DNA of 64,000 bases from NCBI GenBank assembly GCA_973895155.1, contig OZ316895.1:5273181-5337180 (forward strand). Reading direction: 5' to 3'. Both the position numbers and the translations under genes were made by a program. This document shows positions 521-51,338 of this stretch, in pieces; position 1 is the first letter of the stretch; each line of letters starts with the position of its first letter. A model generated the notes under the pieces. The model saw nothing but the letters and a program-made list of their open reading frames with translations, did no database searches and was not told the origin of the DNA. This stretch comes from Marsupella aquatica (taxonomy: Eukaryota > Plantae > Marchantiophyta).

Positions 521-835
521 GCTTTGGGAAGCGGGGATGCCACGCTTATTAGCATATTTAGTGGGTTAGGGTTAGGTGTAGGGGTGTTTTGGAGGCATTT
601 TGGAGCTTATTGAAAAAACCATGCAACATAGATCTAATTCGAACCCATGCATGGCCAAAAAGGGTACTCAAGCCCCTAAAATGAATATATACATATAGAC
701 CCCAATATGTACAAGTGTGATCCACTCGGATCAAATAAGAAATAGCAGCGTGCCCCATATGGTCTACACTTTGTGCCCTAACACACTAGGCTTCTACTCT
801 GCATATGCTGGTCAACTATCTGACTTGCTACCAGC

Positions 836-3800: not shown

Positions 3801-3839
3801 CCCTCCTGCCCCTCCATTGTTGAACCCCTCCATAGCCAT
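836..3839 (-). pseudogene. CACTA accessory (TnpA/Ptta-like) gene, 3 exons, one premature stop
   Basis: ORFs 3492-3839 and 2730-3389 are in the same frame, separated by a single TAG at 3492-3494. GTAAGT donor near 2786 after ...HWMGQGGSQRLKAEF; exon ~2281-2180 (EREHGRPILPDERELAKK...); exon ~2081-836 (acidic, then Gly/Ser/His-rich). The W..W...H..G pattern resembles Ptta/Transposase_24; family call is inference. Confidence 0.6.
1181..1590. repeat. 81-bp coding tandem repeat (about 5 units, 27 aa each)
   Basis: GAGAGAC anchor recurs at 1186, 1267, 1348, 1429 and 1510. Encodes GVSHHGGS..GGRHAPGQSGGSAGGGG-like units on the minus strand. Confidence 0.9.
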
Positions 3840-4812
3840 AAGCTCCTCCCGGCCTTCAATTCCAGTTCGTGACCACGCACTTCCCCGGCTTTTGCCAAAG
3901 AAAACATCTCCCGACGCTCTTTCGATGCAAAGCCCGACTAAGAAGGAGTGGCACTTTGGTCGGGAAACCTAAAACCTGTCCGACTATGGATCCGATTCTT
4001 ACTACATCGGAACAAGCGATGCTGTAATTATCGGAAATATAGTGGATGTCCGATTCTTATAGCATCGGACCCCTCTTGTTAATTCCTTGTATTACTCATG
4101 TCCGAAGTCTTTTCCGATATAATAACTATGGCAATTAATTTGGTTGTATGTTTGATGACCCTATGTTGGTTCTATGTGTTTAAGCAGGGTTTTAGGGATA
4201 GGGTGGACCGTTGGAGCCGCGGTCCCTTCTCATTGTGTGGTTTGGAGGTGGTTGGTATGTATAGATGTTGCGAGTTATATTTGAGAGTTGTTTGGTATTT
4301 ACATTGTGACATTTTGGGTGAAAAATATGGATTCACCTAGCTAGCTAACCTTATGCATACAGTGACATGCCAAATTTTGCAGTTCTTTTTTGCAGAGGGT
4401 TAAGTCACTCGGTTTTTGCAAAGGGTTAGGTTGCTGAGCTTTTTTTGGGGTCCATTTTTGTAATGCATCATGCACAGCGAGAGCCCGCACGTCTGAAAGG
4501 TATGGTTGGACCACTCTAAAATGTTGGGAGGTGCCCGGCATAGGTCGGCCCCCTAGCCAACTATAATTATGGTCATACAGAGGTTAATTATTGATCTTGT
4601 TACACACTAATTAAGTTGAAGTGTTCTTGTGCAGTAATTTCAGACTTGTCTTAGCATATAGTCTAAGGCCAAGATCCTAGTTGGCACTGCAGAGCGCGGG
4701 TCTCATTAAGGTATTATTGATTTAAACATTTTTTTGTTTTGCCTTAAGACATATATATGTAAATAATTGTCACAATGGTGCAGATTCTAAAATATAGTGA
4801 CATTGTGTATAC

Positions 4813-5559
4813 ATGGATGATGGGCAGATGTCCAATTCTGGGAGTTCTGAGTCGGACTCAGACTCAACCTCGTCATCTTCTGAGGGGGACGTTCCTCCTT
4901 CCCCTCCTCGGACTCAATGTCCTCCTCCTATAGGACCTATTCCATGCTGGTGTGTTAGATGTAAAGGCATGGTTCGTCAAGCCTGGGAAGCCATTGAGCA
5001 CATTGAGAACTATGGCCGACATGAGGGTGATTTACCTGGATATTCTGCTCGCCAGGTATGCATCATTTATTGTGCTTGGAGACATTGATATGCACAAGTT
5101 GTAACATTGCACCCATACATTTATTAATTGTTGGTATTTTTTGTGATTGAATAGGTGCCTCGTAGGACCCCTCCTCCATTGGTCTCTAATGACTTATGGG
5201 TAAACACACTTTTGGCTGGTGCAAGAGAGTTGTTAGCAGCATCATCACATCCCCCTCAATGTAGCCTCCCTTGTGTTGATCCAGAGACTATACCAGTTCC
5301 ATCTAGGGTTGGTCACACCCGAGCACGTTCCCAAAGACAACGGCGTCGTTATGAACCCTTGGGTGTGCATGAGACCGAGGACCAAGTTCTGCACCATACT
5401 CATAGAGTACCGCCAGGAGAGGACTATGTGGAAGTGGAAGGGAGGTTGGGGCTTTCATATGTCACTGGGAAGGCATTGACAGTCTTGAAGGATTTCTCAT
5501 CTGAGAGATTCAAAATACCCCCTGGCCTAACCACTGACACTCGTATCCACATATGGGGT
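4813..5559 (+). pseudogene. CACTA transposase (TnpD) N-terminal exons, truncated at the Gypsy junction
   Basis: ATG at 4813; IPCWCVRC...EHIENYG resembles the transposase-associated Zn domain; GT-AG intron 5056-5154; exon 2 from 5155 runs into the retroelement boundary. Confidence 0.7.
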
Positions 5560-5978
5560 CATTTTTTAATTTTTAGTTAAGCCATTTTTTAATTTTTAGT
5601 TAATTCCGTCATTATAGGTTGATGATGCCCCAGGTGACTTTATATTCTTTCTCTCATAATAGTTCTAAGATTTGCGGCGACCTAAGTGGGCAAATATTTT
5701 GGGACCTTGAAACTAGCCCGGACCAGCCCCATAGGACTTACCGTTTTGCTTCAAGAGCTATTGTTGAGACCCCCATTGCAAAGTCAGGAGAGGGGGGGGT
5801 TTTTTTTTAAATAAATCCCTCCTCAGGAGGGCGAGTCCCATTAGTGGCCGTCCGAGAGAAAGAGGGGCTGCCTCGCGAGCCCATAGGGCTGCGTGCCCGG
5901 GCGATTAATGGGGCTCCGCGAGCTGAAGGGGCTGCCTCGCGAGCCCATAGGGCTGCGTGCCCGGGCAATTAATGAGGT

Positions 5979-6175
5979 CCCGCGAGCTGGGAGGATCACG
6001 CGAGCGGGGGGGAGTTAAAGGGCCTCCCGCGAGCTGGGAGGATCACGCGAGCGGGGGGGAGTTAAAGGGCCTCCCGCGAGCTGGGAGGATCACGCGAGCG
6101 GGGGGGAGTTAAAGGGCCTCCCGCGAGCTGGGAGGATCACGCGAGCGGGGGGGAGTTGAAGGGCCTCCCGCGAGC
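5979..6175. repeat. GC-rich 47-bp tandem repeat, 4 units, in the left direct repeat
   Basis: Unit CCCGCGAGCTGGGAGGATCACGCGAGCGGGGGGGAGTTAAAGGGCCT; preceded by a duplicated GGGGCTGCCTCGCGAGCCCATAGGGCTGCGTGCCCGGGC block at ~5863 and ~5927. Confidence 0.95.
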
Positions 6176-6607
6176 CGGGAGGAATGGCCGCGCGCCCTGC
6201 ATAGGGCCGCGCGCAGGAGGACGCAAGGGTAAGGCCCGAGAAATGGGCCGGGGCGCATGGCGAAGGCGCCAGGAGTTTTTTCGGTTCTATTTTTTTTTTC
6301 CTTCCTTTTTCTTTCCCTCTTCCTTTTGCACGACCCTCTCATTGCCGAAAGCAAAAACGGGGTTCTTCTCTCTCTTGCCGGAAGCTCTCTCCAGATTCTA
6401 ATTATTTTTGAAGCTCTCTCTTTCATGGTGGATTAGTGGGGCTTGCTGGCGTCATTCTTCCAGGCATTAGTGGCGGCCGCACGGAGTAGTGACGGGAAAT
6501 TGAGAGAATTTAAGTGATCGGGCTACGGGGGCTGTTTCGGGCCAGGGAATTGACATTGCCACGGGTGACGGGATTGGTGATTGAGAAATTGATTTCGGGA
6601 TGCATGG

Positions 6608-8464
6608 ATGCTAGATCAACCAGAGTTTAGTGCGTCACGCATTCGGAGATACAAGGCTGCTTACCGTGACTACGTGGAGACTCGGATTACACGGGAAAGG
6701 GAAGAGAGAGAAGTTATGATGAGCACGGGATTGGCAGCGGGTTCCTCACCGGTGGGTAGGAAGATTTTTCGTCGAATTTATCCCAAGACCTCCACCAAGG
6801 TGATGGAGGATTGTCGGAACATTTTCCAAGCCACCGGGCTTACAGAATTCATGAAGGTGGAGATTACCATCCCTTCAGGGAAGAGCTGGGACATTGAGGC
6901 CGGGATGGAGTTCCGAACGGAGGGAATCTACTTTGAATGTCTCAAACGTGTAGTGCCCCATGTGGAGTTGGCTAAGCTATTGTTTCTTGAGAATCAGAAA
7001 TTCTCATTCACACCTCGGAATATCAGGGGAGAACTCACGTTGAAAATGGTGGCCACTTGGGTGACCAATCCTACCTCCACCACCGCCATCCCTCTTTCTG
7101 CTGTCAAGGATGTTGAGTATAAGGGCTTCCTGGCCAAGGTGCATCAACGGGTTCTTGGCAACATGCAATCCGGAGTGCTGAATGAGGAGCATTTCGTGGT
7201 AGCTATGGACATCAAGAACTACCCAGCCCATGTGTACGGATGGTGGTGCTACGGATTGAAGAAGCTATTGGCCGCTGAGCCCGGGAGTGTGAAACCAGGT
7301 GGGGCTGTACATTTGATGGGGTCATTTGTATTGGCCAGGGCAGAAGGGTTGATTGGTTCTCCGGGGCATGAAGACACGGGATCATCTCTCACCACGGAGA
7401 TCCGGAGTATTGCCACTACCGTTTTAGGGAAGCTCACGGAGGAATCATTGTCTGCTGGTGGGGAGGATAATAGAGAAGAAGAGAACCAGGAGGATGATTG
7501 CACATTGGAGTGGCTTGAATCACTCGTGGGAGATCCGAAACAGCCTCTGGAATACAACATTCCGGATGTTTACTTGGCAGAGCTACGGGATTTCAGAGAG
7601 GGAGTCCACGAGGGACTCAAGCTAGTCCACGCATTGAGGGAGTCTCTCAAGCACGCCACAGTCAAAGTAGAGACGTTAGAGCAGAGCATCCTGTCACTGA
7701 AGGAGGTGATCAAGACCAAGGAGCAGACCATTCATGAGAAGGTCAGGCACATCAATGCAGCTCACGTAGAGATCACCAACTTGAAGGGAGCTTTGTCCAC
7801 CAAGGCCAAGGAAGCAGAAGAAGTAGGAGCGTTGAGGCAAGCATTGGCCAAAGAGAAGCAAAATTCTGGAGAAGTGATGGAGTGGAGGAACCAGGTGGGA
7901 GCACTACGGAGTCAGGTGGCAGCCTTTGAGACACGAGCGAAGAGAAGTGAGGCCCTGAGTCTAGGGAAACGGAAGAGTCCCGGCACACCTGGCTCCACAC
8001 TTTCCCCGGATGTGATCTCCCAAGCTATCGAGATGGTGGTGAAGGAGGTTAGTGGGAAGTATGGACCCTTGTTGGATGGAGCCAAGAAGAGTCAGGAGAA
8101 GAGTAAGAGCTTGGAGAAGAAGCTCCGGGAGGTACGGAAATCGTTACGGGAGGCTCAGGTCAGTACGGGGATGCCACCCAGGTCTGTCACCCCCGGGACT
8201 CCCATGGCCACGGGGCAAGTTCTACCGTTGGAGTTGCGGTCCGGAGAAGAGGCTACCCTCTGGAAGGACACAATTGGTGAGGGGTACATCAAGGCGTGGC
8301 AGGCCTTGGCTGCTTTGAGGAAGCGCGGGAGCAGCAGCACTAAGAGTACTCCGTCGAAGAAGAAGAAAAGTACGGTGGCACTCACTCCCGTGAGTGATGA
8401 GGAGGAGGACCACTCACGGGGCACAAGTCCGGGCACCGAGAGCGAAGAAGAAGAGGAGGATTAG
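6608..8464 (+). CDS. 618-aa retroelement accessory protein, copy 1 (globular N-terminus, coiled coil, basic/acidic tail)
   Basis: Intact ATG-to-TAG ORF. Heptad-rich region at ~aa 325-515; KRK and RKR..KKKK basic clusters; acidic C-terminus; no signal peptide or transmembrane stretch visible. Confidence 0.85.
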   Translation: MLDQPEFSASRIRRYKAAYRDYVETRITREREEREVMMSTGLAAGSSPVGRKIFRRIYPKTSTKVMEDCRNIFQATGLTEFMKVEITIPSGKSWDIEAGMEFRTEGIYFECLKRVVPHVELAKLLFLENQKFSFTPRNIRGELTLKMVATWVTNPTSTTAIPLSAVKDVEYKGFLAKVHQRVLGNMQSGVLNEEHFVVAMDIKNYPAHVYGWWCYGLKKLLAAEPGSVKPGGAVHLMGSFVLARAEGLIGSPGHEDTGSSLTTEIRSIATTVLGKLTEESLSAGGEDNREEENQEDDCTLEWLESLVGDPKQPLEYNIPDVYLAELRDFREGVHEGLKLVHALRESLKHATVKVETLEQSILSLKEVIKTKEQTIHEKVRHINAAHVEITNLKGALSTKAKEAEEVGALRQALAKEKQNSGEVMEWRNQVGALRSQVAAFETRAKRSEALSLGKRKSPGTPGSTLSPDVISQAIEMVVKEVSGKYGPLLDGAKKSQEKSKSLEKKLREVRKSLREAQVSTGMPPRSVTPGTPMATGQVLPLELRSGEEATLWKDTIGEGYIKAWQALAALRKRGSSSTKSTPSKKKKSTVALTPVSDEEEDHSRGTSPGTESEEEEED

Positions 8465-9595
8465 ATAGGCGTACGGACGTGGGTGTACGGCCTCCAGATT
8501 TCCAACATTTTAGTGGGGGGTCACTCATGGGCTTGTTGGGATGAGCTCGCGGAGCTGATTCCAACAAGAGGCGGCGCTCCTCAAACGGAGCCAGGATGAG
8601 CAAGTTATGGCCTGGAGAACTTATGTTTTTGCGGTACGGAAACGGCCATAACTCAGGCGTCTGAAGTCCGTTGAGGGAGCGACTTAGTGATTCGGAAGCA
8701 GGAAAAGAAGAGCTATCCAGGGGTGAGCTCAGGTGTGCACTTGGAAGGGCACCTAGTTTCGGCCATTTTGGGGTGCCTCTCACTTTCAGGGTTCACGTGT
8801 ACTGTTGGGGCGCCGTCGAAGGCACCGTCGGCCCCCTTGTTTTGGGTTTAGGGTTTTAGCAGCATGTGTGTGCCGCATGCTCCTCTTCAGTTTAAGGATT
8901 TCTCTTAGTGCAAGGTTTTAGCGGCGCCGCTAGGGTAGCCGCCACCGTTGTGACCCTGTGAGGGGTGCTTTGGTGTGATTTTTCAGTATTTAGGGGGATA
9001 GCCCCGAAGTAGTTAGGGGGACTCAGTGTGAAGTTAGCAAGGAGGGATAGAGTGGAGCCTGAGGAGTTTGAAAGCGTGTTCAGAGTAGTGAGGGGGAGCC
9101 ATACTCATTGTCCGGAGAGGCAGGAGTTGAGTAGACGGCAGGAGGCCGGGTTACTCATGCAATGTGTATCGTTTTTCCCAAGAGATATGGATCTGTACAT
9201 TTGACTTGATGGGCTTTTGTTGTGTGTTCCTTCTCCCTTTTTCGCTTTCCGAATTGTGTTCTCCCGTTCTATGATTTGAAGAAACTTGCTTGGTTTGAGT
9301 CGGCCTTGTGAGTAGGGGTGGTGACAGCACTCTTTGGGTGACTCCGAGTGAAGGTGTAGTGGGGTAGTCGGCAGGACTTGATCAAAAGCTGTGGGGTGAG
9401 GGTAGTCGGTAGACTTGATCAAAACCTACATTTCCGGGAGCGGAAACCAAAATACTCATCCTGGTGTGAAAAGAATCCAAATAGCGTCCCTCCACGACCC
9501 CGTAATACGATACCAACGGTTTAAGCGAAGAAAAGTGCGGTTTGCACGTATTAACCGTTGGAGAGGCAAGTGACATAAGTGTGGTCTTTTGTTTT

Positions 9596-9613
9596 TGGCG
9601 CCGCTGCCGGGGA
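9596..9613 (+). other. Primer-binding site complementary to the tRNA-Asp 3' end
   Basis: TGGCGCCGCTGCCGGGGA has one mismatch to TGGCGCCGTTGCCGGGGA, the Athila-type PBS. Confidence 0.85.
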
Positions 9614-9830
9614 ATCCTTCTTCTTGTTTGACGACACGAAGGAGGGGAGCTACGTCTATTGGGAGTTCAAACCTATCAACCACAACGCAACTTGCGACGG
9701 TTGATACGTGAGAAGTTTGTTGGTTACTTTGTTATTGTACGTCAACCACAACGCATCGTGCGACGGTTGATGTTTACAAATATTGCTTTCTGAGACATTG
9801 GTGTAAGTTTGGAATGCAGGTCTCAATGGG

Positions 9831-12800
9831 ATGCCGAGAGGGAGAAGGGGAGGTAGAGGAAGTCCCCAACACACACGTACCCCAAGATCAGAGCTAGAAG
9901 GGGGGCCCTCTTGGATTGGGACCAGACGACGAGTTGCTGCCGAAGAACGCTTACGGCTTGCAGAAGAGAGGAGGTTGCCACTGGTGCTGGAAGAACAAGT
10001 TGGTGTGCAACAGGAAGAGGCTCAACGTAATGAGGCCATATGCCCAGACGAAGAGCCAGACATAGATCACGAGCGAGAAGAAGGAGAGCCCTTTGTGTTG
10101 GTGCAGTCTGAGTTACAAAATCTGATCCCAGAGCTCACTGCATTGCCACAAATCATCTCACACCTATCATCGGTGCTGTTACCGGTGGCCCAACAAGCGC
10201 CATTACCACCTGTGTTGATACAGGCACCGGCTGCACCGATGGCAGCTGCACAACGTACCCGTGTTCAGTACGTACCCTTCAAGGGGAGACCAAAGGATGA
10301 TCCAGACGAATGGATTGAGGAGTTTGAAGGGATTGCCGAAGCTAATGGGGAGTCTGCACATAAGCTCACTATCATTCCTGGAATGATGAGAGGGGAGGCA
10401 GGTCCATGGTTCATTTCGTTGTTGGCCAACGTGAAAGCTGATTGGGCTCTGTTCAAGCAAGCCTTCTTGAAGGAGTTCAGATCCATAGGAGTGGAGGCCA
10501 CCTCACTATTAAAGGTGGGCCAACTCAGGATGAAGAAGAAGGAGTCATTACGGAGGTTTTTGCAAAGGTTCCAAAAGCTGGTACGTCGGATCCAAGCCCG
10601 TACCGATGATGCTATGCGTCAAGCCTGGTTTGTGGCTGCCCTACCAAGCAAGATGGGGTTCTTTGTACGTCAAGCCAAGCCAACCACATTGGCTGAAGCT
10701 ATTGCAGCAGCGGAGTCATACACCGCAGCTGATGCCACAAGCAAGCGTTGCCGAAGAAAGAAGCTGAAGCCGGTTGACAGTTCCTCCAGTGAGGAGTCGA
10801 GTGGATCTGATTCAGATAGTAGTGATGAATCTGAGGATTCTGAGAGTACTACAGAGTCAGACACTACGGAGTCAGAAGCTGAAAGACGAAGGAGGAAGAA
10901 GAAGAAGTTGTCAAAGAAAGTCAAGAAGTCCTCTCACCGTGAAGTGATACTACCCACGGTGGCCGTTACACCATTGTCTACGGCAAGACGCCTGAAGGAG
11001 CAAGAGGCCAGATATGATGAGCTGACGGAGCAAATGAAAGCGTTGAAAGTACATTTTGCCGGACTCAAACCTGAGAGGAGAAAAGTTCCGGTGGAGAGAG
11101 CCAATGTGTGGTGCACCAAGTGCATGAAGTTTGGTCATGCCCCGAAGGAGTGCCCAGCGGGAGAACCAGCCAAGGTTTTCCAAGTACGGGAGGAGGATGT
11201 TGAGGGGGCAAGCTACTCAAATCCTTCATATGCAGCGGAAGGGCCAATAGAGTACTTCATGGAGGAGCCACCAGAGGCCAACGTGTATAGTGTACAACCT
11301 CTCAACCCGGGACCACGGAGCATTCATGGAGTTTCAACAAACGCCGGAGCACCCGCATACTCCAACTATCCCAACGCTAACCCAGGGAATCGACCACCGT
11401 ACCCTGGAGTGAGGAAGATCCCTATTTGTTACAATTGTAGAGTGGCGGGCCACTACGCTAATGTGTGCCCAGAGCCCACCCGTCAAGGCAATGGAGATTT
11501 TGCCCGGCTGTGTCAACTATGCAAGGGGGAGGGTCATCTTGCACCACACTGCCCAACCTTGGAGGCGTTCAAGGCTCAACCGATTGGGGCACAAGAGAAG
11601 AAGGGGCCGCCACCTCCTCTGAAAGAAGCTAGCGTCAACTTTCTCACCACGGAAGCAGTCGACACCCCTCTAATCACTAGAAGAGAAGAAACCGTAGTGA
11701 ACATTCCCAAGCAAAGGATGACCACCATAACGGAGGAGGTGGTACCGCTAGTCGTTGTAGTATCTCCAGTTGTTGAGATACCGGTGGTTGTTGTTGCAAC
11801 ATCTACGGAAGTTGAAGTTGCTAACCCCTCACCCCCAAGTCATGAGTGGACTCATGCTGAGAATCTACCGGAGGAAGACAGCGACGAGGAGAGAAGGCAT
11901 TACTCTTGTTACCGAGTCTCCACTCGATCCGGCAAAAAGAAGGGCAAGTCCGAGCTCAAGCAGAAGTACAAGGAGGTGCATCAAGCTTCCACATCGGGTA
12001 CCTCACACGAACCGGAGGTGCCACCCATGGAGGATAGTGACTTTGATCGGGACAACCCCAAGTTGTTCTATCCGAAGGTGGGAGAAGAGGTACGTAAGCA
12101 GTTGGAGGAGCTAGAAGCACAAGCCATGCAAGCGGCCATTGACAAAGACATGGAGGAGGCAAAGGCCAGAAAGAAAGCGGAGGAGAGGGTTGTTCGTTGG
12201 AAACCGGGAGAAGAGGTCATCCCACCCATACCTCCTGCAACCGCGTACAACATTGCTCAAGACATTCTGGATTGCCCAGTCAGTGCCACAATTGGTCAAC
12301 TATTACGGGATAGCTCCCTATACCGTCGCCAAGTCAAGGAGATTCTCATGAGGAGGAGACGTAGAAGAAGGTTACCCAAAGTTGGGGCTGACCCCATACA
12401 AGTCAACTGGGTCACGGAGGATTTGGGTGCCCCAGAACTCACGGTGGACATCAATGGATGTGCAATACGGTTTGTACCGGTGGACGGGGGCTCGGGAGTC
12501 AACATCATGACTGAGGAGATGGCAAACCGGTTGGGGTATACAGAGTTAGAACCACCGGCACGTGCCATGAGGTTGGCTGATGGTGCACGGGTGGTGCCGT
12601 TGGGGTGTCTCACCAAGATTCCAACAATGATTGGGGGAAAATCTTTCCCCCTCAACTATTTGGTGATGCGACCCGTTCGGCCGTACGGTTTTCCCATTTT
12701 AATTGGCAGGCCATGGTTGTATGTGGCCAAGGTCACAAGTGATTGGGGCAAACGGCAGTTTCGGTTTGGTATCCCCACTATCACTATTCCATGGTCAGCG

Positions 12801-15800
12801 GAGTCACCTCACGGGGAGACTACGACTATGGAGGAGGAATATGATTCAGAGGTCACCTCAGATGAAGACGAGGATGAAGTATACATGGTGAAACTGATTT
12901 CTCACCTCACGGAGGAAGATGTTTTTGGCCCCGGAGTTGCTACTCAAGAGCATGCAGTAGAGGAATCAGTTAGCCAAGTGCACGCTGTTCTAGAAGAGAT
13001 GGAAGACGAGCGAAGCAAAATTGTGGAGGCTGAACCTCTAGAGATTCATGATAGGGAGGCAGAGGATCACCCCGAGGAGGTGGAAATGCAAGCCCACACG
13101 ATCATGTTTGATGATGAGCAAAGAGAGCAGTTTTTGAATGACATCCTGGATGATGACTTTAGAGAGGAGCTATTGTCACATTACAAAGAATCTGACGTTG
13201 AAGAAATAATGGCCCATGTGACAAAGGATCCACCTCCATCCCGACCAGACCAGGAGGAGAGTGATGCACCGGTGTATGGAGGGATGAGGCTCGCACGGTT
13301 GGAAGAAACCTTTGATGAGGAGACACGCAACAAGTTGGACGTGATCAGGCCGGAGCAGTACACAAAGGTGGAAGTGGGTGAGGGCAAGACACTCAACATT
13401 GGTAGTAAGTTGGATGCTACGGAGCAACGCACGATTCAGGAATTGTTGAAAGAGTACCAAGACGTATTTGCGTGGAGCCACCAAGATTTGAAAGGAGTGC
13501 CACCTGAGTTTGGTGAGCACAGCATTGACCTGATGTCAGGAGCACGACCTGTGAGGCAACGCCAATACCGCCTCAACCCCAAATACTCACTCATGGTGAA
13601 GGAGGAGATTGACCGTTTGTTGGATGCAGGATTCATTTATCCGGTCATGCATAGTGAGTGGGTGTCACCCATCGTAATCGTGCCCAAGAAAAAGGGGCCA
13701 GACGGGAAGGTGAAAATACGGGTGTGCCAAGATTTTCGAAAGTTGAATGATGCGACCAAGAAGGATCACTACCCGCTACCGTTCACGGATATCGTGTTGG
13801 ACATGGTAGCAGGTTGGGAGATATACAGCTTCTTGGATGGCTACTCTGGGTACAACCAAATCTGGATACGGGAGGAGGACCAACTCAAGACGGCTTTCAC
13901 AACAGAGTGGGGGATTTTTGCATTCCGGAGAATGCCTTTTGGGTTGTGCAATGCCCCTGGCATGTTCCAACGGCTCATGATGAATATATTTCATGACTTT
14001 TTACGCAGGTTCTTGGAGATCTTTATTGATGACTTTGCTGTCTACGGCAAACGAGTCAAGCATCCGGAACACTTACGGTTGACTTTTCAGCGGTGCCGGG
14101 AGACTTGCCTGAAGCTGCATCCGGAGAAATGTTTCTTTGGAATTGAGGAGGGAATCCTATTGGGCCACAAAGTGTCTGCACGAGGGATTGAAGTTGATCG
14201 TGAGAAGGTCGCCGTGTGGGTAGCAGTCTCATTTCCCAAGAATGTGAAGGAAGTGAGAGGGTTCTTGGGGTGTGTTGGCTACTACCGACGCTTCATCAAA
14301 GACTTTGCCAAGGTAGCCATGCCACTCACTTCCATGTTGAAAAAAGGAAGTGAGTTTGAACCTACTCCTTCCCGTCAGGCTGCTTTTGATGAATTGAAGA
14401 AACGATTGCTAGAGGCCCCCGTGCTCATTACGCCCAATTGGAATAAGGAATTCCATGTTTACGTAGACGTATCAGGATTTTGCATCGGTGCCGTTTTGAG
14501 TCAGTTAGATGATGATGGAAGAGACCATCCCATCTACTTTGCCAGTAGGCAGTTGGCCCCGGCAGAGAAAAACTACTCACCCACCGATAGGGAGGCACTT
14601 GGTATCATCTACGCTTGTAAGAAGTATCGTCATTATTTGTTGGGGTACAAGGTTGTGTTCCACACGGATCACAACAGCTTGAAATACATGGTCAACAAGC
14701 CAGATCTGTCCGGGAGAATTGCACGTTGGGTTTTGTTGCTACAAGAGTTCAACTATGAGGTGAGAGTAAGATCGGGGAAGAGTCATAGCAATGCAGACTT
14801 CTTCTCCCGTATTGAGGGAGCATCTGACTCCCAGGAGATTGATGATCGGTTCCCGGATGAGGAAGTGTTCAGCGTGAATACAGAGGCCACTACTTGGTAT
14901 GGAGAAATTTTGGAATTTCTCCGCACGGCTAGAGTTCCCTCACGTTTGGGCCCGGAGAGAGCAGCAGTGTTTTTGCGTAAGACAGGTCCCTACTTGCTTG
15001 TGAAGGGAGTACTTCACAAGTACGGCATGGATGGCCGACTTCGTCGTTGTTTGGAGGAAGCGGAGATACGTACAGTCATGGCAGCATTACATGAGGAGGA
15101 AGCTGGTGGCCACTTTGCACGGGAGACCACCGCAAGGAAAATACTAGATGCTGGATATTGGTGGCCAACTCTCTTTCGGGATGTACACCGGTACATCCAG
15201 CGATGTGATCCGTGCCAGCGTCAAGGCAAACCAGGGCCCTCCTCACGACACCCATTGGTGCCCATACTTCCTCTTGCACCCTTTGAGAAGTGGGGGGTGG
15301 ACTTCATTGGCCCTTTCACTCCCATCACACGAAGAGGGAGGAAGCGCTACATCATTCTTGCAACGGACTATGCCACCAAGTGGGTGGAGGCCCGAGCTAC
15401 TGCCAAGGATGATGCCAACACCACGGCACGTTTTTTGTATGAGCAGATTTTTACACGATTTGGTCCACCATTGGAGTTGGTAAGTGACAGGGGTACTCAC
15501 TTCCTCAATCATACGATTGAACGTTTGACGGAGAACTACTTGATCTCACATAGGAAGACCACTCCGTACCACCCTCGAGCCAACGGGCTCACTGAGAGAG
15601 CCAACGGGATCATGGGCAAGATCCTCAACAAAACGGTATCCGCTCACAAGACCGATTGGGATTTGAAGTTGTTGGCTGCCACTTACGCTTACAACCTGGC
15701 TCACAAGACTACCACGGGCCACAGCCCCTATTTCCTTGTGTTTGGACAACACTCTCTTGTGCCGGTGGAATTTGAGGTTCCAACCATTCGAATCCTAACA

Positions 15801-16229
15801 CGGGAAAGGGAAGGGGCAGAAGAAAGTGTCGCTTCACGGATCCAACAGTTGGAGCAACTCACGGAGACACGAGAAGAGGCTTTGACACATACGGAGCAGG
15901 AGCAAGGCAAACGCAAGTCACATTACGATTCCCGTCTCCGTCGTGTGTCCATTGAGGAGGGAGATTTGGTGCTCCTCTACGATAGCCGCTTCATGCATTT
16001 CCCCGGGAAGTTGCATACACGGTGGATGGGACCCTACGTAGTGGATGCCGTCTACTCCAACGGCTCGGTTCAACTCAAGACATTGGAGGGGCAACTACTC
16101 AACACACGGATCAATCAAGAGCGCCTAAAGAAGTACTACACGGAGGAAGAGTATGGTGCTCGCGGGGGCGCTTCGCAATTAAGAGAGGAGCTATGTGACG
16201 GGTACCCCGTCACGGGAAGTCACACATAA
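9831..16229 (+). CDS. gag-pol: Gag-Pol polyprotein (2132 aa)
   Basis: Gag core; three CCHC knuckles (CTKCMKFGHAPKEC, CYNCRVAGHYANVC, CQLCKGEGHLAPHC); protease VDGGSGVNIM; RT with MPFGL and FIDDF; RNase H VYVDVSG; integrase HHCC, DFIGP/SDRG/ERAN and GPY. Confidence 0.97.
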   Translation: MPRGRRGGRGSPQHTRTPRSELEGGPSWIGTRRRVAAEERLRLAEERRLPLVLEEQVGVQQEEAQRNEAICPDEEPDIDHEREEGEPFVLVQSELQNLIPELTALPQIISHLSSVLLPVAQQAPLPPVLIQAPAAPMAAAQRTRVQYVPFKGRPKDDPDEWIEEFEGIAEANGESAHKLTIIPGMMRGEAGPWFISLLANVKADWALFKQAFLKEFRSIGVEATSLLKVGQLRMKKKESLRRFLQRFQKLVRRIQARTDDAMRQAWFVAALPSKMGFFVRQAKPTTLAEAIAAAESYTAADATSKRCRRKKLKPVDSSSSEESSGSDSDSSDESEDSESTTESDTTESEAERRRRKKKKLSKKVKKSSHREVILPTVAVTPLSTARRLKEQEARYDELTEQMKALKVHFAGLKPERRKVPVERANVWCTKCMKFGHAPKECPAGEPAKVFQVREEDVEGASYSNPSYAAEGPIEYFMEEPPEANVYSVQPLNPGPRSIHGVSTNAGAPAYSNYPNANPGNRPPYPGVRKIPICYNCRVAGHYANVCPEPTRQGNGDFARLCQLCKGEGHLAPHCPTLEAFKAQPIGAQEKKGPPPPLKEASVNFLTTEAVDTPLITRREETVVNIPKQRMTTITEEVVPLVVVVSPVVEIPVVVVATSTEVEVANPSPPSHEWTHAENLPEEDSDEERRHYSCYRVSTRSGKKKGKSELKQKYKEVHQASTSGTSHEPEVPPMEDSDFDRDNPKLFYPKVGEEVRKQLEELEAQAMQAAIDKDMEEAKARKKAEERVVRWKPGEEVIPPIPPATAYNIAQDILDCPVSATIGQLLRDSSLYRRQVKEILMRRRRRRRLPKVGADPIQVNWVTEDLGAPELTVDINGCAIRFVPVDGGSGVNIMTEEMANRLGYTELEPPARAMRLADGARVVPLGCLTKIPTMIGGKSFPLNYLVMRPVRPYGFPILIGRPWLYVAKVTSDWGKRQFRFGIPTITIPWSAESPHGETTTMEEEYDSEVTSDEDEDEVYMVKLISHLTEEDVFGPGVATQEHAVEESVSQVHAVLEEMEDERSKIVEAEPLEIHDREAEDHPEEVEMQAHTIMFDDEQREQFLNDILDDDFREELLSHYKESDVEEIMAHVTKDPPPSRPDQEESDAPVYGGMRLARLEETFDEETRNKLDVIRPEQYTKVEVGEGKTLNIGSKLDATEQRTIQELLKEYQDVFAWSHQDLKGVPPEFGEHSIDLMSGARPVRQRQYRLNPKYSLMVKEEIDRLLDAGFIYPVMHSEWVSPIVIVPKKKGPDGKVKIRVCQDFRKLNDATKKDHYPLPFTDIVLDMVAGWEIYSFLDGYSGYNQIWIREEDQLKTAFTTEWGIFAFRRMPFGLCNAPGMFQRLMMNIFHDFLRRFLEIFIDDFAVYGKRVKHPEHLRLTFQRCRETCLKLHPEKCFFGIEEGILLGHKVSARGIEVDREKVAVWVAVSFPKNVKEVRGFLGCVGYYRRFIKDFAKVAMPLTSMLKKGSEFEPTPSRQAAFDELKKRLLEAPVLITPNWNKEFHVYVDVSGFCIGAVLSQLDDDGRDHPIYFASRQLAPAEKNYSPTDREALGIIYACKKYRHYLLGYKVVFHTDHNSLKYMVNKPDLSGRIARWVLLLQEFNYEVRVRSGKSHSNADFFSRIEGASDSQEIDDRFPDEEVFSVNTEATTWYGEILEFLRTARVPSRLGPERAAVFLRKTGPYLLVKGVLHKYGMDGRLRRCLEEAEIRTVMAALHEEEAGGHFARETTARKILDAGYWWPTLFRDVHRYIQRCDPCQRQGKPGPSSRHPLVPILPLAPFEKWGVDFIGPFTPITRRGRKRYIILATDYATKWVEARATAKDDANTTARFLYEQIFTRFGPPLELVSDRGTHFLNHTIERLTENYLISHRKTTPYHPRANGLTERANGIMGKILNKTVSAHKTDWDLKLLAATYAYNLAHKTTTGHSPYFLVFGQHSLVPVEFEVPTIRILTREREGAEESVASRIQQLEQLTETREEALTHTEQEQGKRKSHYDSRLRRVSIEEGDLVLLYDSRFMHFPGKLHTRWMGPYVVDAVYSNGSVQLKTLEGQLLNTRINQERLKKYYTEEEYGARGGASQLREELCDGYPVTGSHT
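16181..16190 (+). other. Candidate polypurine tract
   Basis: AAGAGAGGAG followed 3 nt later by TGTGAC (16194), a near inverted match to the ...GTGACA repeat end. Confidence 0.5.
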
Positions 16230-16671
16230 CTGGTTGCAAAGGCCGATACCTTGTTAATAGTCAATGTAAATAAGCCATTTTTTAATTTTTAGTTAATTCC
16301 GTCATTATAGGTTGATGATGCCCCAGGTGACTTTATATTCTTTCTCTCATAATAGTTCTAAGATTTGCGGCGACCTAAGTGGGCAAATATTTTGGGACCT
16401 TGAAACTAGCCCGGACCAGCCCCATAGGACTTACCGTTTTGCTTCAAGAGCTATTGTTGAGACCCCCATTGCAAAGTCAGGAGAGGGGGGGGTTTTTTTT
16501 TAAATAAATCCCTCCTCAGGAGGGCGAGTCCCATTAGTGGCCGTCCGAGAGAAAGAGGGGCTGCCTCGCGAGCCCATAGGGCTGCGTGCCCGGGCGATTA
16601 ATGGGGCTCCGCGAGCTGAAGGGGCTGCCTCGCGAGCCCATAGGGCTGCGTGCCCGGGCAATTAATGAGGT

Positions 16672-16821
16672 CCCGCGAGCTGGGAGGATCACGCGAGCGG
16701 GGGGGAGTTAAAGGGCCTCCCGCGAGCTGGGAGGATCACGCGAGCGGGGGGGAGTTAAAGGGCCTCCCGCGAGCTGGGAGGATCACGCGAGCGGGGGGGA
16801 GTTGAAGGGCCTCCCACGAGC
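16672..16821. repeat. 47-bp tandem repeat, 3 units, in the right direct repeat
   Basis: Same unit as 5979-6175 with one copy fewer, which explains the 47-bp offset change. Confidence 0.95.
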
Positions 16822-17253
16822 CGGGAGGAATGGCCGCGCGCCCTGCATAGGGCCGCGCGCAGGAGGACGCAAGGGTAAGGCCCGAGAAATGGGCCGGGGC
16901 GCATGGCGAAGGCGCCAGGAGTTTTTTCGGTTCTATTTTTTTTTTCCTTCCTTTTTCTTTCCCTCTTCCTTTTGCACGACCCTCTCATTGCCGAAAGCAA
17001 AAACGGGGTTCTTCTCTCTCTTGCCGGAAGCTCTCTCCAGATTCTAATTATTTTTGAAGCTCTCTCTTTCATGGTGGATTAGTGGGGCTTGCTGGCGTCA
17101 TTCTTCCAGGCATTAGTGGCGGCCGCACGGAGTAGTGACGGGAAATTGAGAGAATTTAAGTGATCGGGCTACGGGGGCTGTTTCGGGCCAGGGAATTGAC
17201 ATTGCCACGGGTGACGGGATTGGTGATTGAGAAATTGATTTCGGGATGCATGG

Positions 17254-19110
17254 ATGCTAGATCAACCAGAGTTTAGTGCGTCACGCATTCGGAGATACAA
17301 GGCTGCTTACCGTGACTACGTGGAGACTCGGATTACACGGGAAAGGGAAGAGAGAGAAGTTATGATGAGCACGGGATTGGCAGCGGGTTCCTCACCGGTG
17401 GGTAGGAAGATTTTTCGTCGAATTTATCCCAAGACCTCCACCAAGGTGATGGAGGATTGTCGGAACATTTTCCAAGCCACCGGGCTTACAGAATTCATGA
17501 AGGTGGAGATTACCATCCCTTCAGGGAAGAGCTGGGACATTGAGGCCGGGATGGAGTTCCGAACGGAGGGAATCTACTTTGAATGTCTCAAACGTGTAGT
17601 GCCCCATGTGGAGTTGGCTAAGCTATTGTTTCTTGAGAATCAGAAATTCTCATTCACACCTCGGAATATCAGGGGAGAACTCACGTTGAAAATGGTGGCC
17701 ACTTGGGTGACCAATCCTACCTCCACCACCGCCATCCCTCTTTCTGCTGTCAAGGATGTTGAGTATAAGGGCTTCCTGGCCAAGGTGCATCAACGGGTTC
17801 TTGGCAACATGCAATCCGGAGTGCTGAATGAGGAGCATTTCGTGGTAGCTATGGACATCAAGAACTACCCAGCCCATGTGTACGGATGGTGGTGCTACGG
17901 ATTGAAGAAGCTATTGGCCGCTGAGCCCGGGAGTGTGAAACCAGGTGGGGCTGTACATTTGATGGGGTCATTTGTATTGGCCAGGGCAGAAGGGTTGATT
18001 GGTTCTCCGGGGCATGAAGACACGGGATCATCTCTCACCACGGAGATCCGGAGTATTGCCACTACCGTTTTAGGGAAGCTCACGGAGGAATCATTGTCTG
18101 CTGGTGGGGAGGATAATAGAGAAGAAGAGAACCAGGAGGATGATTGCACATTGGAGTGGCTTGAATCACTCGTGGGAGATCCGAAACAGCCTCTGGAATA
18201 CAACATTCCGGATGTTTACTTGGCAGAGCTACGGGATTTCAGAGAGGGAGTCCACGAGGGACTCAAGCTAGTCCACGCATTGAGGGAGTCTCTCAAGCAC
18301 GCCACAGTCAAAGTAGAGACGTTAGAGCAGAGCATCCTGTCACTGAAGGAGGTGATCAAGACCAAGGAGCAGACCATTCATGAGAAGGTCAGGCACATCA
18401 ATGCAGCTCACGTAGAGATCACCAACTTGAAGGGAGCTTTGTCCACCAAGGCCAAGGAAGCAGAAGAAGTAGGAGCGTTGAGGCAAGCATTGGCCAAAGA
18501 GAAGCAAAATTCTGGAGAAGTGATGGAGTGGAGGAACCAGGTGGGAGCACTACGGAGTCAGGTGGCAGCCTTTGAGACACGAGCGAAGAGAAGTGAGGCC
18601 CTGAGTCTAGGGAAACGGAAGAGTCCCGGCACACCTGGCTCCACACTTTCCCCGGATGTGATCTCCCAAGCTATCGAGATGGTGGTGAAGGAGGTTAGTG
18701 GGAAGTATGGACCCTTGTTGGATGGAGCCAAGAAGAGTCAGGAGAAGAGTAAGAGCTTGGAGAAGAAGCTCCGGGAGGTACGGAAATCGTTACGGGAGGC
18801 TCAGGTCAGTACGGGGATGCCACCCAGGTCTGTCACCCCCGGGACTCCCATGGCCACGGGGCAAGTTCTACCGTTGGAGTTGCGGTCCGGAGAAGAGGCT
18901 ACCCTCTGGAAGGACACAATTGGTGAGGGGTACATCAAGGCGTGGCAGGCCTTGGCTGCTTTGAGGAAGCGCGGGAGCAGCAGCACTAAGAGTACTCCGT
19001 CGAAGAAGAAGAAAAGTACGGTGGCACTCACTCCCGTGAGTGATGAGGAGGAGGACCACTCACGGGGCACAAGTCCGGGCACCAAGAGCGAAGAAGAAGA
19101 GGAGGATTAG
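17254..19110 (+). CDS. 618-aa retroelement accessory protein, copy 2
   Basis: Same protein as 6608-8464 except E to K near the C-terminus (G8438 vs A19084). Confidence 0.85.
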   Translation: MLDQPEFSASRIRRYKAAYRDYVETRITREREEREVMMSTGLAAGSSPVGRKIFRRIYPKTSTKVMEDCRNIFQATGLTEFMKVEITIPSGKSWDIEAGMEFRTEGIYFECLKRVVPHVELAKLLFLENQKFSFTPRNIRGELTLKMVATWVTNPTSTTAIPLSAVKDVEYKGFLAKVHQRVLGNMQSGVLNEEHFVVAMDIKNYPAHVYGWWCYGLKKLLAAEPGSVKPGGAVHLMGSFVLARAEGLIGSPGHEDTGSSLTTEIRSIATTVLGKLTEESLSAGGEDNREEENQEDDCTLEWLESLVGDPKQPLEYNIPDVYLAELRDFREGVHEGLKLVHALRESLKHATVKVETLEQSILSLKEVIKTKEQTIHEKVRHINAAHVEITNLKGALSTKAKEAEEVGALRQALAKEKQNSGEVMEWRNQVGALRSQVAAFETRAKRSEALSLGKRKSPGTPGSTLSPDVISQAIEMVVKEVSGKYGPLLDGAKKSQEKSKSLEKKLREVRKSLREAQVSTGMPPRSVTPGTPMATGQVLPLELRSGEEATLWKDTIGEGYIKAWQALAALRKRGSSSTKSTPSKKKKSTVALTPVSDEEEDHSRGTSPGTKSEEEEED

Positions 19111-20222
19111 ATAGGCGTACGGACGTGGGTGTACGGCCTCCAGATTTCCAACATTTTAGTGGGGGGTCACTCATGGGCTTGTTGGGATGAGCTCGCGGAG
19201 CTGATTCCAACAAGAGGCGGCGCTCCTCAAACGGAGCCAGGATGAGCAAGTTATGGCCTGGAGAACTTATGTTTTTGCGGTACGGAAACGGCCATAACTC
19301 AGGCGTCTGAAGTCCGTTGAGGGAGCGACTTAGTGATTCGGAAGCAGGAAAAGAAGAGCTATCCAGGGGTGAGCTCAGGTGTGCACTTGGAAGGGCACCT
19401 AGTTTCGGCCATTTTGGGGTGCCTCTCACTTTCAGGGTTCACGTGTACTGTTGGGGCGCCGTCGAAGGCACCGTCGGCCCCCTTGTTTTGGGTTTAGGGT
19501 TTTAGCAGCATGTGTGTGCCGCATGCTCCTCTTCAGTTTAAGGATTTCTCTTAGTGCAAGGTTTTAGCGGCGCCGCTAGGGTAGCCGCCACCGTTGTGAC
19601 CCTGTGAGGGGTGCTTTGGTGTGATTTTTCAGTATTTAGGGGGATAGCCCCGAAGTAGTTAGGGGGACTCAGTGTGAAGTTAGCAAGGAGGGATAGAGTG
19701 GAGCCTGAGGAGTTTGAAAGCGTGTTCAGAGTAGTGAGGGGGAGCCATACTCATTGTCCGGAGAGGCAGGAGTTGAGTAGACGGCAGGAGGCCGGGTTAC
19801 TCATGCAATGTGTATCGTTTTTCCCAAGAGATATGGATCTGTACATTTGACTTGATGGGCTTTTGTTGTGTGTTCCTTCTCCCTTTTTCGCTTTCCGAAT
19901 TGTGTTCTCCCGTTCTATGATTTGAAGAAACTTGCTTGGTTTGAGTCGGCCTTGTGAGTAGGGGTGGTGACAGCACTCTTTGGGTGACTCCGAGTGAAGG
20001 TGTAGTGGGGTAGTCGGCAGGACTTGATCAAAAGCTGTGGGGTGAGGGTAGTCGGTAGACTTGATCAAAACCTACATTTCCGGGAGCGGAAACCAAAATA
20101 CTCATCCTGGTGTGAAAAGAATCCAAATAGCGTCCCTCCACGACCCCGTAATACGATACCAACGGTTTAAGCGAAGAAAAGTGCGGTTTGCACGTATTAA
20201 CCGTTGGAGAGGCAAGTGACAG

Positions 20223-22091
20223 TCTACCACCCTACGGAAGATAGTTTACATTGGTCACACAAAGTATCTCCCCCCAGAGCATGAATGGAGGCGTGATCCA
20301 TTCTTATACGACACAGATGATGGCCAACCAGACACACGCCCTCAACTAGTGCCAAGGGATCCACGTTATTGGAAAGATGTATGGGATAGAGTGACAGACC
20401 CGGATGATCCATTACAGTTGGCCCGGTGTGGCATGACTCGATTGTCTGCATTAATGTCAAAGCTGCCATATTGGGCTGAGATGCCAATTAACCATTTGTT
20501 TGACCCTATGCACATTGAGGGGAATGTTGGGAGGTCATTGATTCGCCATCTATATGGAGAGAAAGACAACAACTGGAGAGAGAGTTGTGAGGAGATGGGG
20601 ATGCATGGCCCTCATGGGTTTTGGCCATCTATGGATCCTCCTAATGCCCCCCTTACTATTCACCCTCCTTGGGTATTGACCAGAGGTGAGCGGACTGAGT
20701 TTCGCAAACATATAGGGTCAATAAGGTTTCCCACAGGTTATGGTGCCAATCTTCGTAAGGCATTTGGGGGTGATGATTCTCCAAAATGGCCATCTTACCT
20801 GAAAACACATGATTTTCATCGGTTACTCGAACATGTCATTCCAGTTGCGATTATTGGATTGGGTAGTGAGGATCTTCGAGATGCCCTGTGGTCATTAGGT
20901 AAGCTCTTGAGGTGGGTGTGTCAGAAAGAGGTGAATGAGGATGAGATTGCAGCGATGGACCTTTTTGGAGTGGAGGTATTGTGCAAGTTGGAGAGGGCAC
21001 TCCCTCCTTCGTTCTTTGATGGTCAAGTTCACTTCCTCCTCCACCTAGTGCGTGAGGTTGCGATTGCAGGGCCGGTACATTGTCGTTGGATGTACTGGGT
21101 AGAGCGGTATATGGGAGTGATGAAGTCATATGTGTCAAATCGTGCGAGAGTGGAAGGTAGCATTACTGAGCGTCATCTTGGAGCAGAGAGCATGTTTTAT
21201 TGTACAAACATTGTAGCTACACTTGATCCCAGAGCTCCAAGGGGCTGGATAGACGAGGCATCAAGGGAAGCAGACTTTGAGGATGACCGTCTCACAGGGG
21301 CAAAGGGAGAACGACTTATGGGCTCAACTGAGCGTCTTCAACTTACTACATTTATGTTGTATAACTCGCCTGAGATTGTGGGAGATTGGACAACTTTTTA
21401 TGAGGAGGAAAAGGCAAATAGTCGTCGGCCACGCAACTTCCCCAAGTTTGTCCCATACATGAGGGCAAAGTTGACAGAGATCGATGCCTTGTTGGAGCAA
21501 GGGGAGAGTGTGTCAGACTTCCCTTTGGTTACAGACAGTCTTCGCACCTTTGTTCATGGACCATTACTTACGGTGACAACTCGGACAGCCATGTGGTCAA
21601 AGGGAAGACATTTCCGTGTGCAACGACTTGATGACAAGAGGGCAGCTACACAAGATTGTGGGGTCATGGGTTGGTTCACCCAAGATTCACAAAGTAGCAT
21701 ATCTGATAGGAATCCAATACGCTCTATGGTGGCCCACTACGGTAAGATTGAAGAGATATTGAGTGTGAAGTACCATGCGCACACCACTTTCGAGGAGGTG
21801 GTGTTGAAGTGCAAATGGTTTCGGATGAACCTTGTTGGCCAAAACCGAACTTACGAAGAAGATGCTTGTGGGTTCACACGGTTGAAGACAGGTGCAAATA
21901 GTGTCATTAGCTCAACTTGGAGAACCTCTGATCCATTTGCATTCCCCCATCATCTTGAGCAGGCTTTCTATCTTCCCTATCCAGATGATCCTGAGTGGTC
22001 CATTGTCATGAGTTATATTCCAAGATCACGATCCATAGTCCAGGAGCGACCCAATGTAGTTGTAGTTGAAGATTTGGACCCCGAGCCTTGA
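20223..22091 (+). pseudogene. CACTA transposase (TnpD) C-terminal portion (end of Transposase_21, DUF4218- and DUF4216-like regions)
   Basis: KIVYIGHTKYLPPEHEWR, FDPMHIEGN, LKTHDFH, PPSFFD..HLV.E...GPV...WMY..ER, YGKIEEI...KCKWF, DPFAFP...QAFY. Open frame from the Gypsy junction to TGA at 22089-22091. Confidence 0.92.
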
Positions 22092-22249
22092 GGTCCTTGC
22101 TAGTGTACCTTGGGACCAATCAGATAGAACCACCTCTGAATGTTTACTTTTACCGGCATTATATATGATTTTTTTATTTCATGTACCCTCTCCTATGAGA
22201 GTGACCACATTTCTTAATAAACTTATGAATGTTGGTTTTCCCACACTCT

Positions 22250-22567
22250 GTCCGATGTAGTGACCAACGGAAAGTACTTGGAAACATAGTGCCTTACAAT
22301 TGTGGCAATATCCGATTCAATCTACATCGGACCCCTCATGAAAGTTATCGGAGACATTTCCGATACTCTCCGCATCAAAACACTTCCGATGCCAAAACTA
22401 ACGGAAATAGGGACCGATGGCTTTTGTATCAGAAAAATAATATGCGATGTACAAAGAATGGCAAATTGCGTAAGGTAAAATATCGGAACCGTGCGACGGT
22501 ATTAGTATCGGAAGAGTGATGAGGCGCGATATCAAAGCATCGGAAAAATGCTGAAAATGTACTAGTG
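22250..22567. repeat. CACTA right subterminal motif array and TIR
   Basis: Repeated TCCGAT/ATCGGA motifs ending in AAAATGTACTAGTG. Confidence 0.85.
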
Positions 22568-29987: not shown

Positions 29988-30016
29988 ACTCGGTAGAAAG
30001 GTCGAACGATAGTCTA

Positions 30017-51146: not shown

Positions 51147-51307
51147 TGATTTGCTCGCTTTTCGTTTTTGGAGCGAGGTCAACAGAGGACCCACGAGGTG
51201 GGTGACTGGCGAAGGTGTTTTGTTGGAGTAAACAGTTGTGTTTATCGAAGTGGAGAGGACTCGTTCAATAATGGAAAAGGATATAATTGCTGAGAGCAAA
51301 GGAGGGT

Positions 51308-51338
51308 GGCATTGCGAGAATCGAACTCGCGGCCTCTT
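51308..51338 (-). pseudogene. tRNA-Pro 3'-half fragment within a tandem duplication
   Basis: GGCATTGCGAGAATCGAACTCGCGGCCTCTT is duplicated together with ~90 bp of the tRNA downstream flank. Confidence 0.75.

Follow-up and report, generated by a model that had tools for sequence, protein, structure and literature searches.

Long terminal repeats (LTRs) are ordinarily described as non-coding, and the sag gene of the betaretrovirus mouse mammary tumour virus (MMTV) departs from this pattern by lying in the U3 region of the LTR, where integration duplicates it and solo LTRs retain it, most sag copies having been found as solo LTRs (PMC4667437; this and the other sources below are cited for the portions drawn on here). 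Plant LTRs are treated as non-coding as well, and surveys place the extra open reading frames (ORFs) of plant elements in the internal region (PMC7264820, PMC6317226). Among the extra sense ORFs of plant Gypsy elements are the Athila env-like ORF (ATHILA ORF-1, PF03078), Transposase_32 (PF20167), the plant mobile domain (PF10536) and Transposase_28 (PF04195); the positions reported for such ORFs are either between pol and the 3' LTR or upstream of gag (PMC7264820, PMC6317226, PMC11728184). Non-chromovirus LTRs can reach about 5 kb (PMC6317226), and the rice element Retrosat2 has a 3.2-kb LTR together with an ORF0 upstream of gag-pol (PMC3485330). Here we describe a Ty3/Gypsy LTR retrotransposon of ~14.7 kb from the liverwort Marsupella aquatica, located in a 64,000-nt stretch of contig OZ316895.1 (hereafter the window, whose coordinates are used throughout), in which an intact gene for a 618-aa protein most probably lies inside each of two 4-kb LTRs.

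Self-BLAST of the window finds direct repeats at 5578-9575 and 16271-20221 that are 98.8% identical over 3998 columns, and their global alignment contains only two substitutions (6170/16816 and 8438/19084) and one extra 47-bp tandem unit in the left copy. Between the repeats lies a single gag-pol ORF (9831-16229, 2132 aa) in which Pfam recovers gag, zf-CCHC, protease, reverse transcriptase (RT), RNase H and integrase in Gypsy order, the zf-CCHC and protease matches scoring under the Pfam cut-offs, with no Pfam match to a chromodomain or a second RNase H; the native RNase H retains its D-E-D-D residues. This gag-PR-RT-RH-INT order, flanked by direct repeats and accompanied by a primer-binding site (PBS) and a polypurine tract (PPT), identifies the element as a Ty3/Gypsy LTR retrotransposon. 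Each repeat holds a 618-aa sense ORF (6608-8464 and 17254-19110), and the substitution at 8438/19084, which encodes E611K, is the sole difference between the two products. Both repeats terminate in GTGACA, and the right one begins with TGTGAC at 16194, preceded by AAGAGAGGAG (16181-16190) and CTA, the last 36 nt of gag-pol falling within the 3' LTR. A first-pass annotation of the window had reported the two near-identical ~4-kb direct repeats around the PBS and gag-pol, a full ORF in each, the GC-rich tandem arrays and CT-rich leader upstream of the ORFs, the shared GTGACA ends and a right-hand start at TGTGAC overlapping the last pol codons, and on all of these points our analysis agrees with it. 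The features of the element and its target, all on the plus strand, are as follows:

5560-5579, +: 20-bp duplication of LTR sequence at the left junction, a copy of 5583-5602 (period 23, 1.9 copies, 100% matches)
5578-9575, +: 5' LTR lacking its first 77 bp (self-BLAST, alignment)
5863-6183, +: GC-rich tandem arrays of the left repeat, 64 bp x2 and 47 bp x4.4
6608-8464, +: 618-aa ORF of the 5' LTR
8511-8525, +: PPT-like run and GTCACT, the rival LTR start; no boundary of the dominant family, possibly a relic
9576-9595, +: 20-nt spacer from LTR end to PBS
9596-9613, +: primer-binding site TGGCGCCGCTGCCGGGGA
9831-16229, +: gag-pol ORF, 2132 aa
16160-16193, +: TCGCGGGG motif, polypurine tract (16181-16190) and 3-nt gap preceding the LTR
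16194-20221, +: 3' LTR, 4028 bp, TGTGAC...GTGACA
16556-16829, +: GC-rich tandem arrays of the right repeat, 64 bp x2 and 47 bp x3.4
16921-17070, +: CT-rich leader, candidate promoter or 5' untranslated region of the ORF
17254-19110, +: 618-aa ORF of the 3' LTR
20222-22091, +: segment of a host CACTA transposase of Tnp2 type, split by the insertion (the target, lying outside the element); DUF4218 E 1e-29, DUF4216 E 3e-5, Transposase_21 E 0.037

Whether the gene lies inside an LTR depends on where the LTR begins. The first-pass annotation had preferred a ~4-kb LTR with the gene inside, and had offered as an alternative a tandem dimer with an env-position ORF, a ~1.06-kb LTR and a truncated left unit. 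In this rival, whether a dimer or a recombinant of an ordinary element, the LTR would be 19166-20221 and the ORF would belong to the internal region. The two models make different predictions for contigs assembled from sequencing runs: a 4-kb LTR should have about twice the depth of pol over the whole repeat and contigs that break at 16194, whereas in the short-LTR dimer the ORF should have the depth of pol and contigs should break near 19166. Of 12 public runs, six contained at least half of the words, and four runs (X1-X4, from four studies, one perhaps the source of the window itself) were compared over 9576-21200. No RNA run was among the 12, which bears neither way on expression. The figures come from 32 listed pieces of about 4,900, contig depth is not copy number, and the depth ratios were taken from near-exact contigs, with X4 left out altogether, along with an X2 contig that has 14 differences and an X3 contig that has 45.

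In X1 a 392-bp contig begins exactly at 16194 with a depth of 1524, the other two repeat contigs, one of which (19562-20044) lies beyond the rival boundary, have depths of 1524 and 1572, and five internal contigs have depths of 687-724. The ratio of repeat to internal depth is 2.18 in X1, 2.17 in X3 and 1.79 in X2; the ORF region stands at about twice the pol depth in three of the four runs, and at the same depth as the sequence downstream of 19166. The rival boundary (8520/19166) is crossed unbroken by contigs in all four runs: an X2 contig spans 16774-19218 without interruption, and in each run the contig carrying 19084G extends 123-135 nt each way, past 19166, where a break would end a contig at about 19196 if, as we presume, 31-mers were used. 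The joint from 20221 to 9576 has a depth of 686 in X1 (about 44% of the LTR depth), 164 in X2, 2564 in X3 and 0 in X4, roughly as expected if near half of the LTR ends lead into the PBS. Because a contig starts at 16194, the depth ratio is 1.8-2.2 in three of four runs and no contig breaks at 19166, we conclude, with a probability of about 0.82, that the repeats are true LTRs of 4,028 bp (16194-20221), each enclosing an intact 618-codon gene, in a young non-chromovirus Ty3/Gypsy element.

Several observations weigh against this conclusion. X4 gives no clear ratio (internal depth 18.7-65.5, repeat depth 35.3 and 68.8), and the listed X3 contig begins at 16206 rather than 16194. The summed depth rises 2-3 fold from 18888 (over 18888-20439), to 780-1204 from 180-440 in X2 and to 15,800-28,800 from about 11,000 in X3, an excess that a dimer could also accommodate; it may come from related families that have just the 3' part of the LTR in common with this one and perhaps carry another gene there, or no gene at all. 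The rival sequence is indeed present, as the first-pass annotation had noted at ~8511-8525: TAGTGGGGGG-TCACT occurs in both repeats (8511-8525/19157-19171), and its agreement with the inverted LTR end is unbroken for 6 nt (GTCACT), where the 16194 site matches 5 of 6 with one mismatch. In addition, no target-site duplication is visible around the element in the window, where its left end is deleted, and plant Gypsy elements commonly carry a sense ORF between pol and the 3' LTR (PMC7264820). The depth of the ORF region and the continuity across 19166 nevertheless make the ~1.06-kb-LTR dimer a very improbable account. Loose contig ends occur near 19481, 20020 and 20139, within the region of raised depth (18888-20439).

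The 4,028-bp LTR also bears on how the gene is propagated. The depth excess over 2.0 is just about 0.17-0.18 in two runs, which suggests that solo LTRs are few. The first-pass annotation had proposed that the gene would be kept in every solo LTR and so spread independently of gag-pol; the first part would follow from the layout, and the second is overstated, since a solo LTR cannot transpose and the depth excess points to few of them.

A duplication of 4 kb created by assembly might be suspected from the near identity of the copies and from the irregular left junction. The copies differ at two sites and by one array unit, and both the doubled depth and the joint from LTR end to PBS recur in runs of three studies, one of them possibly the window's own source, so that an artefact is barely credible. 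As to the left junction, the 77 bp with which the right repeat starts at 16194 are absent from the left repeat, and a deletion with filler DNA likely took these 77 bp together with the target-site duplication and adjacent host DNA. Because the start of the left LTR is deleted, the 5' LTR boundary cannot be fixed from the window alone. The insertion is, judging by only 2 substitutions in 3951 bases between the LTRs, very young, about 20,000 years old under a grass substitution rate that we assume and that may not fit this host. Both window repeats carry 16412C and 17809A where run contigs have A and G, as expected if both LTRs were copied from one template.

The element interrupts a CACTA element. 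The Transposase_21 match of the right flank is weak (E 0.037), covering profile positions 164-186 of 213 and starting five codons from the LTR end, and most of that host domain appears to be missing. Pfam finds no CACTA match in the left flank, which we take, from a Cys/His motif alone, to be the start of the same CACTA gene. The host CACTA element (4801-5559 and 20222-22091) is multi-copy in the runs, with a depth of 1300-1800 in X1 over 20440-21200.

The PBS TGGCGCCGCTGCCGGGGA (9596-9613), putatively of the tRNA-Asp type, lies 20 nt from the LTR end (9576-9595), and the joint of LTR end to 9576 is found in three of four runs. The usual distance is a few bases. Given the presence of the joint in three of four runs, the spacer is likely a trait of the family, and it would imply either a long overhang for integrase trimming or a slightly longer LTR. 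RNA folding of the U5-PBS region is not significant (z -1.16), and Rfam gives 0 matches over 9400-20400.

The 618-aa ORF behaves as real coding sequence, as judged from a length beyond that of all shuffles, from its codon bias and from the stops in its other frames. Among 1000 dinucleotide-type shuffles of the 4028-bp repeat the longest stop-free frame has a median of 158 and a maximum of 306 codons, and none reaches 618; the base bias by codon position is like that of gag-pol and unlike that of the non-coding LTR parts; and the other five frames over the ORF contain 16-34 stops each. Among the 12 indel rows listed, the sole indel inside the ORF is an in-frame insertion of 3 nt. It could still be a captured fragment of a host gene, or some other passenger, with no role in transposition and intact only through the youth of the family. 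With LTRs that differ at just 2/3951 bases an intact ORF says little about selection, and the failure to find a homologue would suit a passenger too. A recently captured host gene would likely have matched databases, however, and the strong codon-position bias, the lack of introns, the restriction of indels to an in-frame one among the rows listed, and the presence of an ORF of comparable length and organisation in the corresponding position of a related metagenome locus, L039, with 58% identity in pol, make the passenger reading improbable.

The encoded protein has an N-terminal domain that is likely helical, followed by an acidic linker, a probable coiled coil and a low-complexity tail rich in Ser, Pro and Thr, which bears KKKK at residue 584; the charged stretch at residues ~331-520 has sub-threshold coiled-coil matches in Pfam. 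No membrane helix was found in a simple hydropathy scan rather than a trained predictor (top Kyte-Doolittle 19-residue mean 1.09), and an env-like identity was rejected for want of a transmembrane segment. A word-index search, which may miss remote homologues, found no homologue among 7994 candidates, nor among 804 shorter candidates for residues 40-330, and none was found in viral contigs, prokaryote genomes, PDB sequences, 80 metagenome loci or the retrieved proteins. Pfam returned no match to ATHILA ORF-1, Transposase_32, the plant mobile domain or Transposase_28. A single-sequence structural model of the N-terminal part is unusable (predicted local distance difference test, pLDDT, 39), and Foldseek gave 0 matches at E <= 0.001 with this low-confidence model. 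In these searches the gene falls into no recognised family, and its product is likely a soluble, nuclear, coiled-coil accessory protein.

Its function can be approached by analogy of layout. Coiled-coil pentamers have been predicted for the Athila domain and for VANC, an anti-silencing protein structurally akin to the chromatin regulator MAIN (PMC13547354). We tentatively suggest, from layout only, that the 618-aa protein may act like the Athila-ORF/Transposase_32/plant-mobile-domain class, forming oligomers and acting on chromatin so as to keep the element expressed or unsilenced, a proposal we hold as possible rather than probable. Its Atlas look-alikes are ATHILA ORF-1 (0.83), Transposase_32 (0.82), the plant mobile domain (0.77), Transposase_28 (0.76) and unnamed clusters. 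Against such kinship stand these scores themselves, which at 0.76-0.83 fall under the 0.9 lead threshold in a comparison where a third of shuffled proteins reach 0.8, and an HHalign probability of 0.1% against a profile of five Athila/Transposase_32 ORFs.

Under the standard LTR cycle, the purine tract at 16181-16190, which lies within the last part of pol, would serve as primer for the plus strand, and all sequence downstream of the tract, the gene included, would be copied into both LTRs in each round of reverse transcription. Priming at this position would place the gene at both ends of the element and in any solo LTR, where it would be retained yet immobile without gag-pol. A promoter of its own, located at the GC-rich arrays and the CT-rich leader, would likely drive the gene, with transcripts ending at the LTR poly(A) site. 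After insertion into the CACTA transposase gene, the deletion at the left end would likely have followed, removing 77 bp of LTR, the target-site duplication and adjacent host DNA.

The placement of the gene within the LTR may be U3 (about 60%) or R (about 40%). With the gene in R, one promoter 5' of the ORF would give rise to two RNAs, a short ORF mRNA that ends in the 5' LTR and a genomic RNA that reads through, with gag-pol translated after splicing; this arrangement overlaps the architecture proposed above. The most promoter-like stretch of the LTR (16531-16920, 70% GC, CpG observed/expected 0.94, followed by the CT-rich leader) does lie upstream of the ORF, and TGCAG, which we take to be an acceptor-like site, stands just 5' of the gag ATG. 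A motif scan of the LTR finds AATAAA once, at 16503, and TATA[AT]A nowhere, and these motifs do not decide between U3 and R. What we take for a telo-box-like motif, TAGGGTTT (19495-19502), hints at a second start downstream of the ORF. An R of 2,023 bp has been proposed for rice Retrosat2 (PMC3485330), but here the scheme requires a minus-strand strong-stop DNA of about 3 kb and transcription that continues past the 5' poly(A) site, and we consider this full version of it possible, though unlikely.

A scan of metagenomes for related elements covered 6 of 64 parts and yielded 80 mostly distant loci; L039 is the only one above 52% identity (58% in pol), and no locus with a related full element was found in the viral or prokaryote collections. 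L039 carries a sense ORF of 606 aa, 845 bp downstream of the pol stop, with a TATA and a CT-rich leader, in broadly the layout seen in the window (L039:2356-4978), and Pfam finds no match for its product. The motif TCGCGGGG...TGT has a single occurrence in the window and, across the 80 loci, just one more, in L039, where it lies 43 bp past the pol stop and the 606-aa ORF starts about 770 bp later. If it marks the LTR start of L039, the ORF there is possibly inside an LTR too, on a contig that holds no second copy. Since L039 shares this signal after pol, an old lineage trait may be favoured over a recent shift of the PPT; the first-pass annotation had supposed that an accessory gene was absorbed into U3, and the signal suggests that the layout may predate this family. 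The PPT-like site at 19157-19171 could be the relic of such a shift.

The alignment of the window protein with that of L039 is no better than shuffles (z -0.7 and 0.6). N-terminal homology was rejected: a forced alignment has ~25% identity, but 765 (local) and 261 (global) of 1000 shuffles score as well. HHalign of the L039 protein against the five Athila/Transposase_32 ORFs was negative, and the single-sequence model of part of it (pLDDT 38.5) is unusable. Another metagenome contig, L079, has an exact 2761-bp direct repeat overlapping coding regions (L079:457-8033) that is likely an assembly overlap. We hypothesize that a bryophyte-associated lineage of non-chromoviruses, L039 included, maintains within its LTRs an accessory gene that is large, evolves fast and has a promoter of its own, each insertion thereby bringing two copies and each solo LTR remaining fully equipped to express a trans-acting factor of the anti-silencing or chromatin kind; as a whole this is speculative and rather unlikely to hold in every part.

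The rest of the window contains other repeats and genes:

778-3968, minus: low-complexity ORFs and an 81-bp tandem array (1114-1649), which may belong to the CACTA element
2730-3491, minus: 253-aa ORF, no Pfam match found; may likewise belong to the CACTA element
22569-24564: fragmented Mutator-like transposase, with a weak ZSWIM RNaseH-like match (23089-23526) and a SWIM zinc finger (24184-24564)
26378-30895, minus: ORFs of 427, 220 and 292 aa, no convincing Pfam match found
49820-50395, minus: dirigent-like gene (PF03018, E 4e-29), a land-plant marker
51432-51503, minus: tRNA-Pro(TGG) gene adjoining a 125-bp duplication (51214-51465), with a partial copy at 51967-52069

A 618-aa gene in a 4-kb LTR makes a solo LTR a retained gene rather than a promoter scar and doubles the gene dose of each insertion, and pipelines that seek ORFs only between LTRs may overlook it. 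Because the family is young and multi-copy with intact gag-pol, the role of the accessory ORFs of plant retrotransposons, a question of long standing, becomes testable in a liverwort or moss model that is haploid and can be transformed. Neither extra ORFs nor long LTRs are new in themselves, MMTV already shows the layout, and both the expression of the gene and the role of the protein are here predictions. The arrangement is one of known parts that we have not found reported for plants in literature searched by full text and mostly judged by titles and the beginnings of abstracts, and a prior description may exist.

Among described lineages, the closest named relatives of pol are liverwort proteins, of Riccia sorocarpa (58%) and Marchantia polymorpha (47%), while unnamed metagenome proteins reach 74-81%. 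A quick maximum likelihood tree of 78 RT-RNase H rows (matches of at least 50% identity and chosen named rows, without curated references) places the element outside a 25-row angiosperm Athila/Tat clade (support 99) and inside a 50-row clade (support 92) with the Marchantia and Riccia rows. On this sequence evidence the element is a non-chromovirus Gypsy placed in no named lineage. It shares with Athila, as defined in REXdb, the absence of a chromodomain and of an additional RNase H, and a PBS whose Asp label is our presumption. In Athila a tRNA-Asp PBS is found in 72% (PMC6317226, table); membership by RT-RNase H grouping is contradicted by the position outside the angiosperm Athila/Tat clade. 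The Tat groups with an additional RNase H (TatI-III, Ogre, Retand) do not fit, the second RNase H being absent and the native one not degenerate, and Tat Z1/Z2, like the element, lack the additional RNase H (PMC10508981; PMC13468544).

Phygy and Selgy resemble the element in a polyprotein that fills nearly all of the internal region, and differ from it in size (4.4-10 kb against ~14.7 kb), in having no extra ORF and in their Trp/Ala primers, against a PBS that we label Asp-type (PMC6317226). Phygy in particular was rejected, since the right flank begins GTCT rather than with the 4-bp NCGN target, the length is ~14.7 kb against 7.7-10 kb, an extra ORF is present and the Phygy PBS is of the tRNA-Trp type. 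The portions cited of PMC10508981, PMC13468544 and PMC6317226 mention no LTR gene for Tat Z1/Z2 or for Phygy/Selgy. Rice Retrosat2, FRetro3, RIRE3 and RIRE8 are also plant Gypsy elements; their LTRs measure about 3 kb or more and have the termini TGTCAC...GTGACA, and an additional ORF0 is present (PMC3485330), but this group belongs to the Tekay chromoviruses (PMC6317226, table), and its ORF0 lies upstream of gag-pol, one per element, and is not described in the LTR in the portion cited.

The extra ORFs of plant non-chromoviruses share with the 618-aa ORF a large size, sense orientation downstream of pol, fast evolution, basic motifs and a likely coiled coil; they sit in the internal region, whereas the present ORF is inside the repeat and finds no match to them by Pfam or HHalign. 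The likeness to MMTV is one of position, a protein gene inside an LTR, the boundaries enclosing the ORF here by contig evidence. MMTV is a vertebrate retrovirus with env and an immune function for its LTR gene, while the present element has a plant host and no env, and its gene, wholly inside the LTR and encoding no membrane helix, differs from sag, homology to which was not searched. If an LTR gene does prove to be general in this lineage, it would be the plant counterpart of the retroviral LTR genes, overlooked by annotation that treats LTRs as non-coding.

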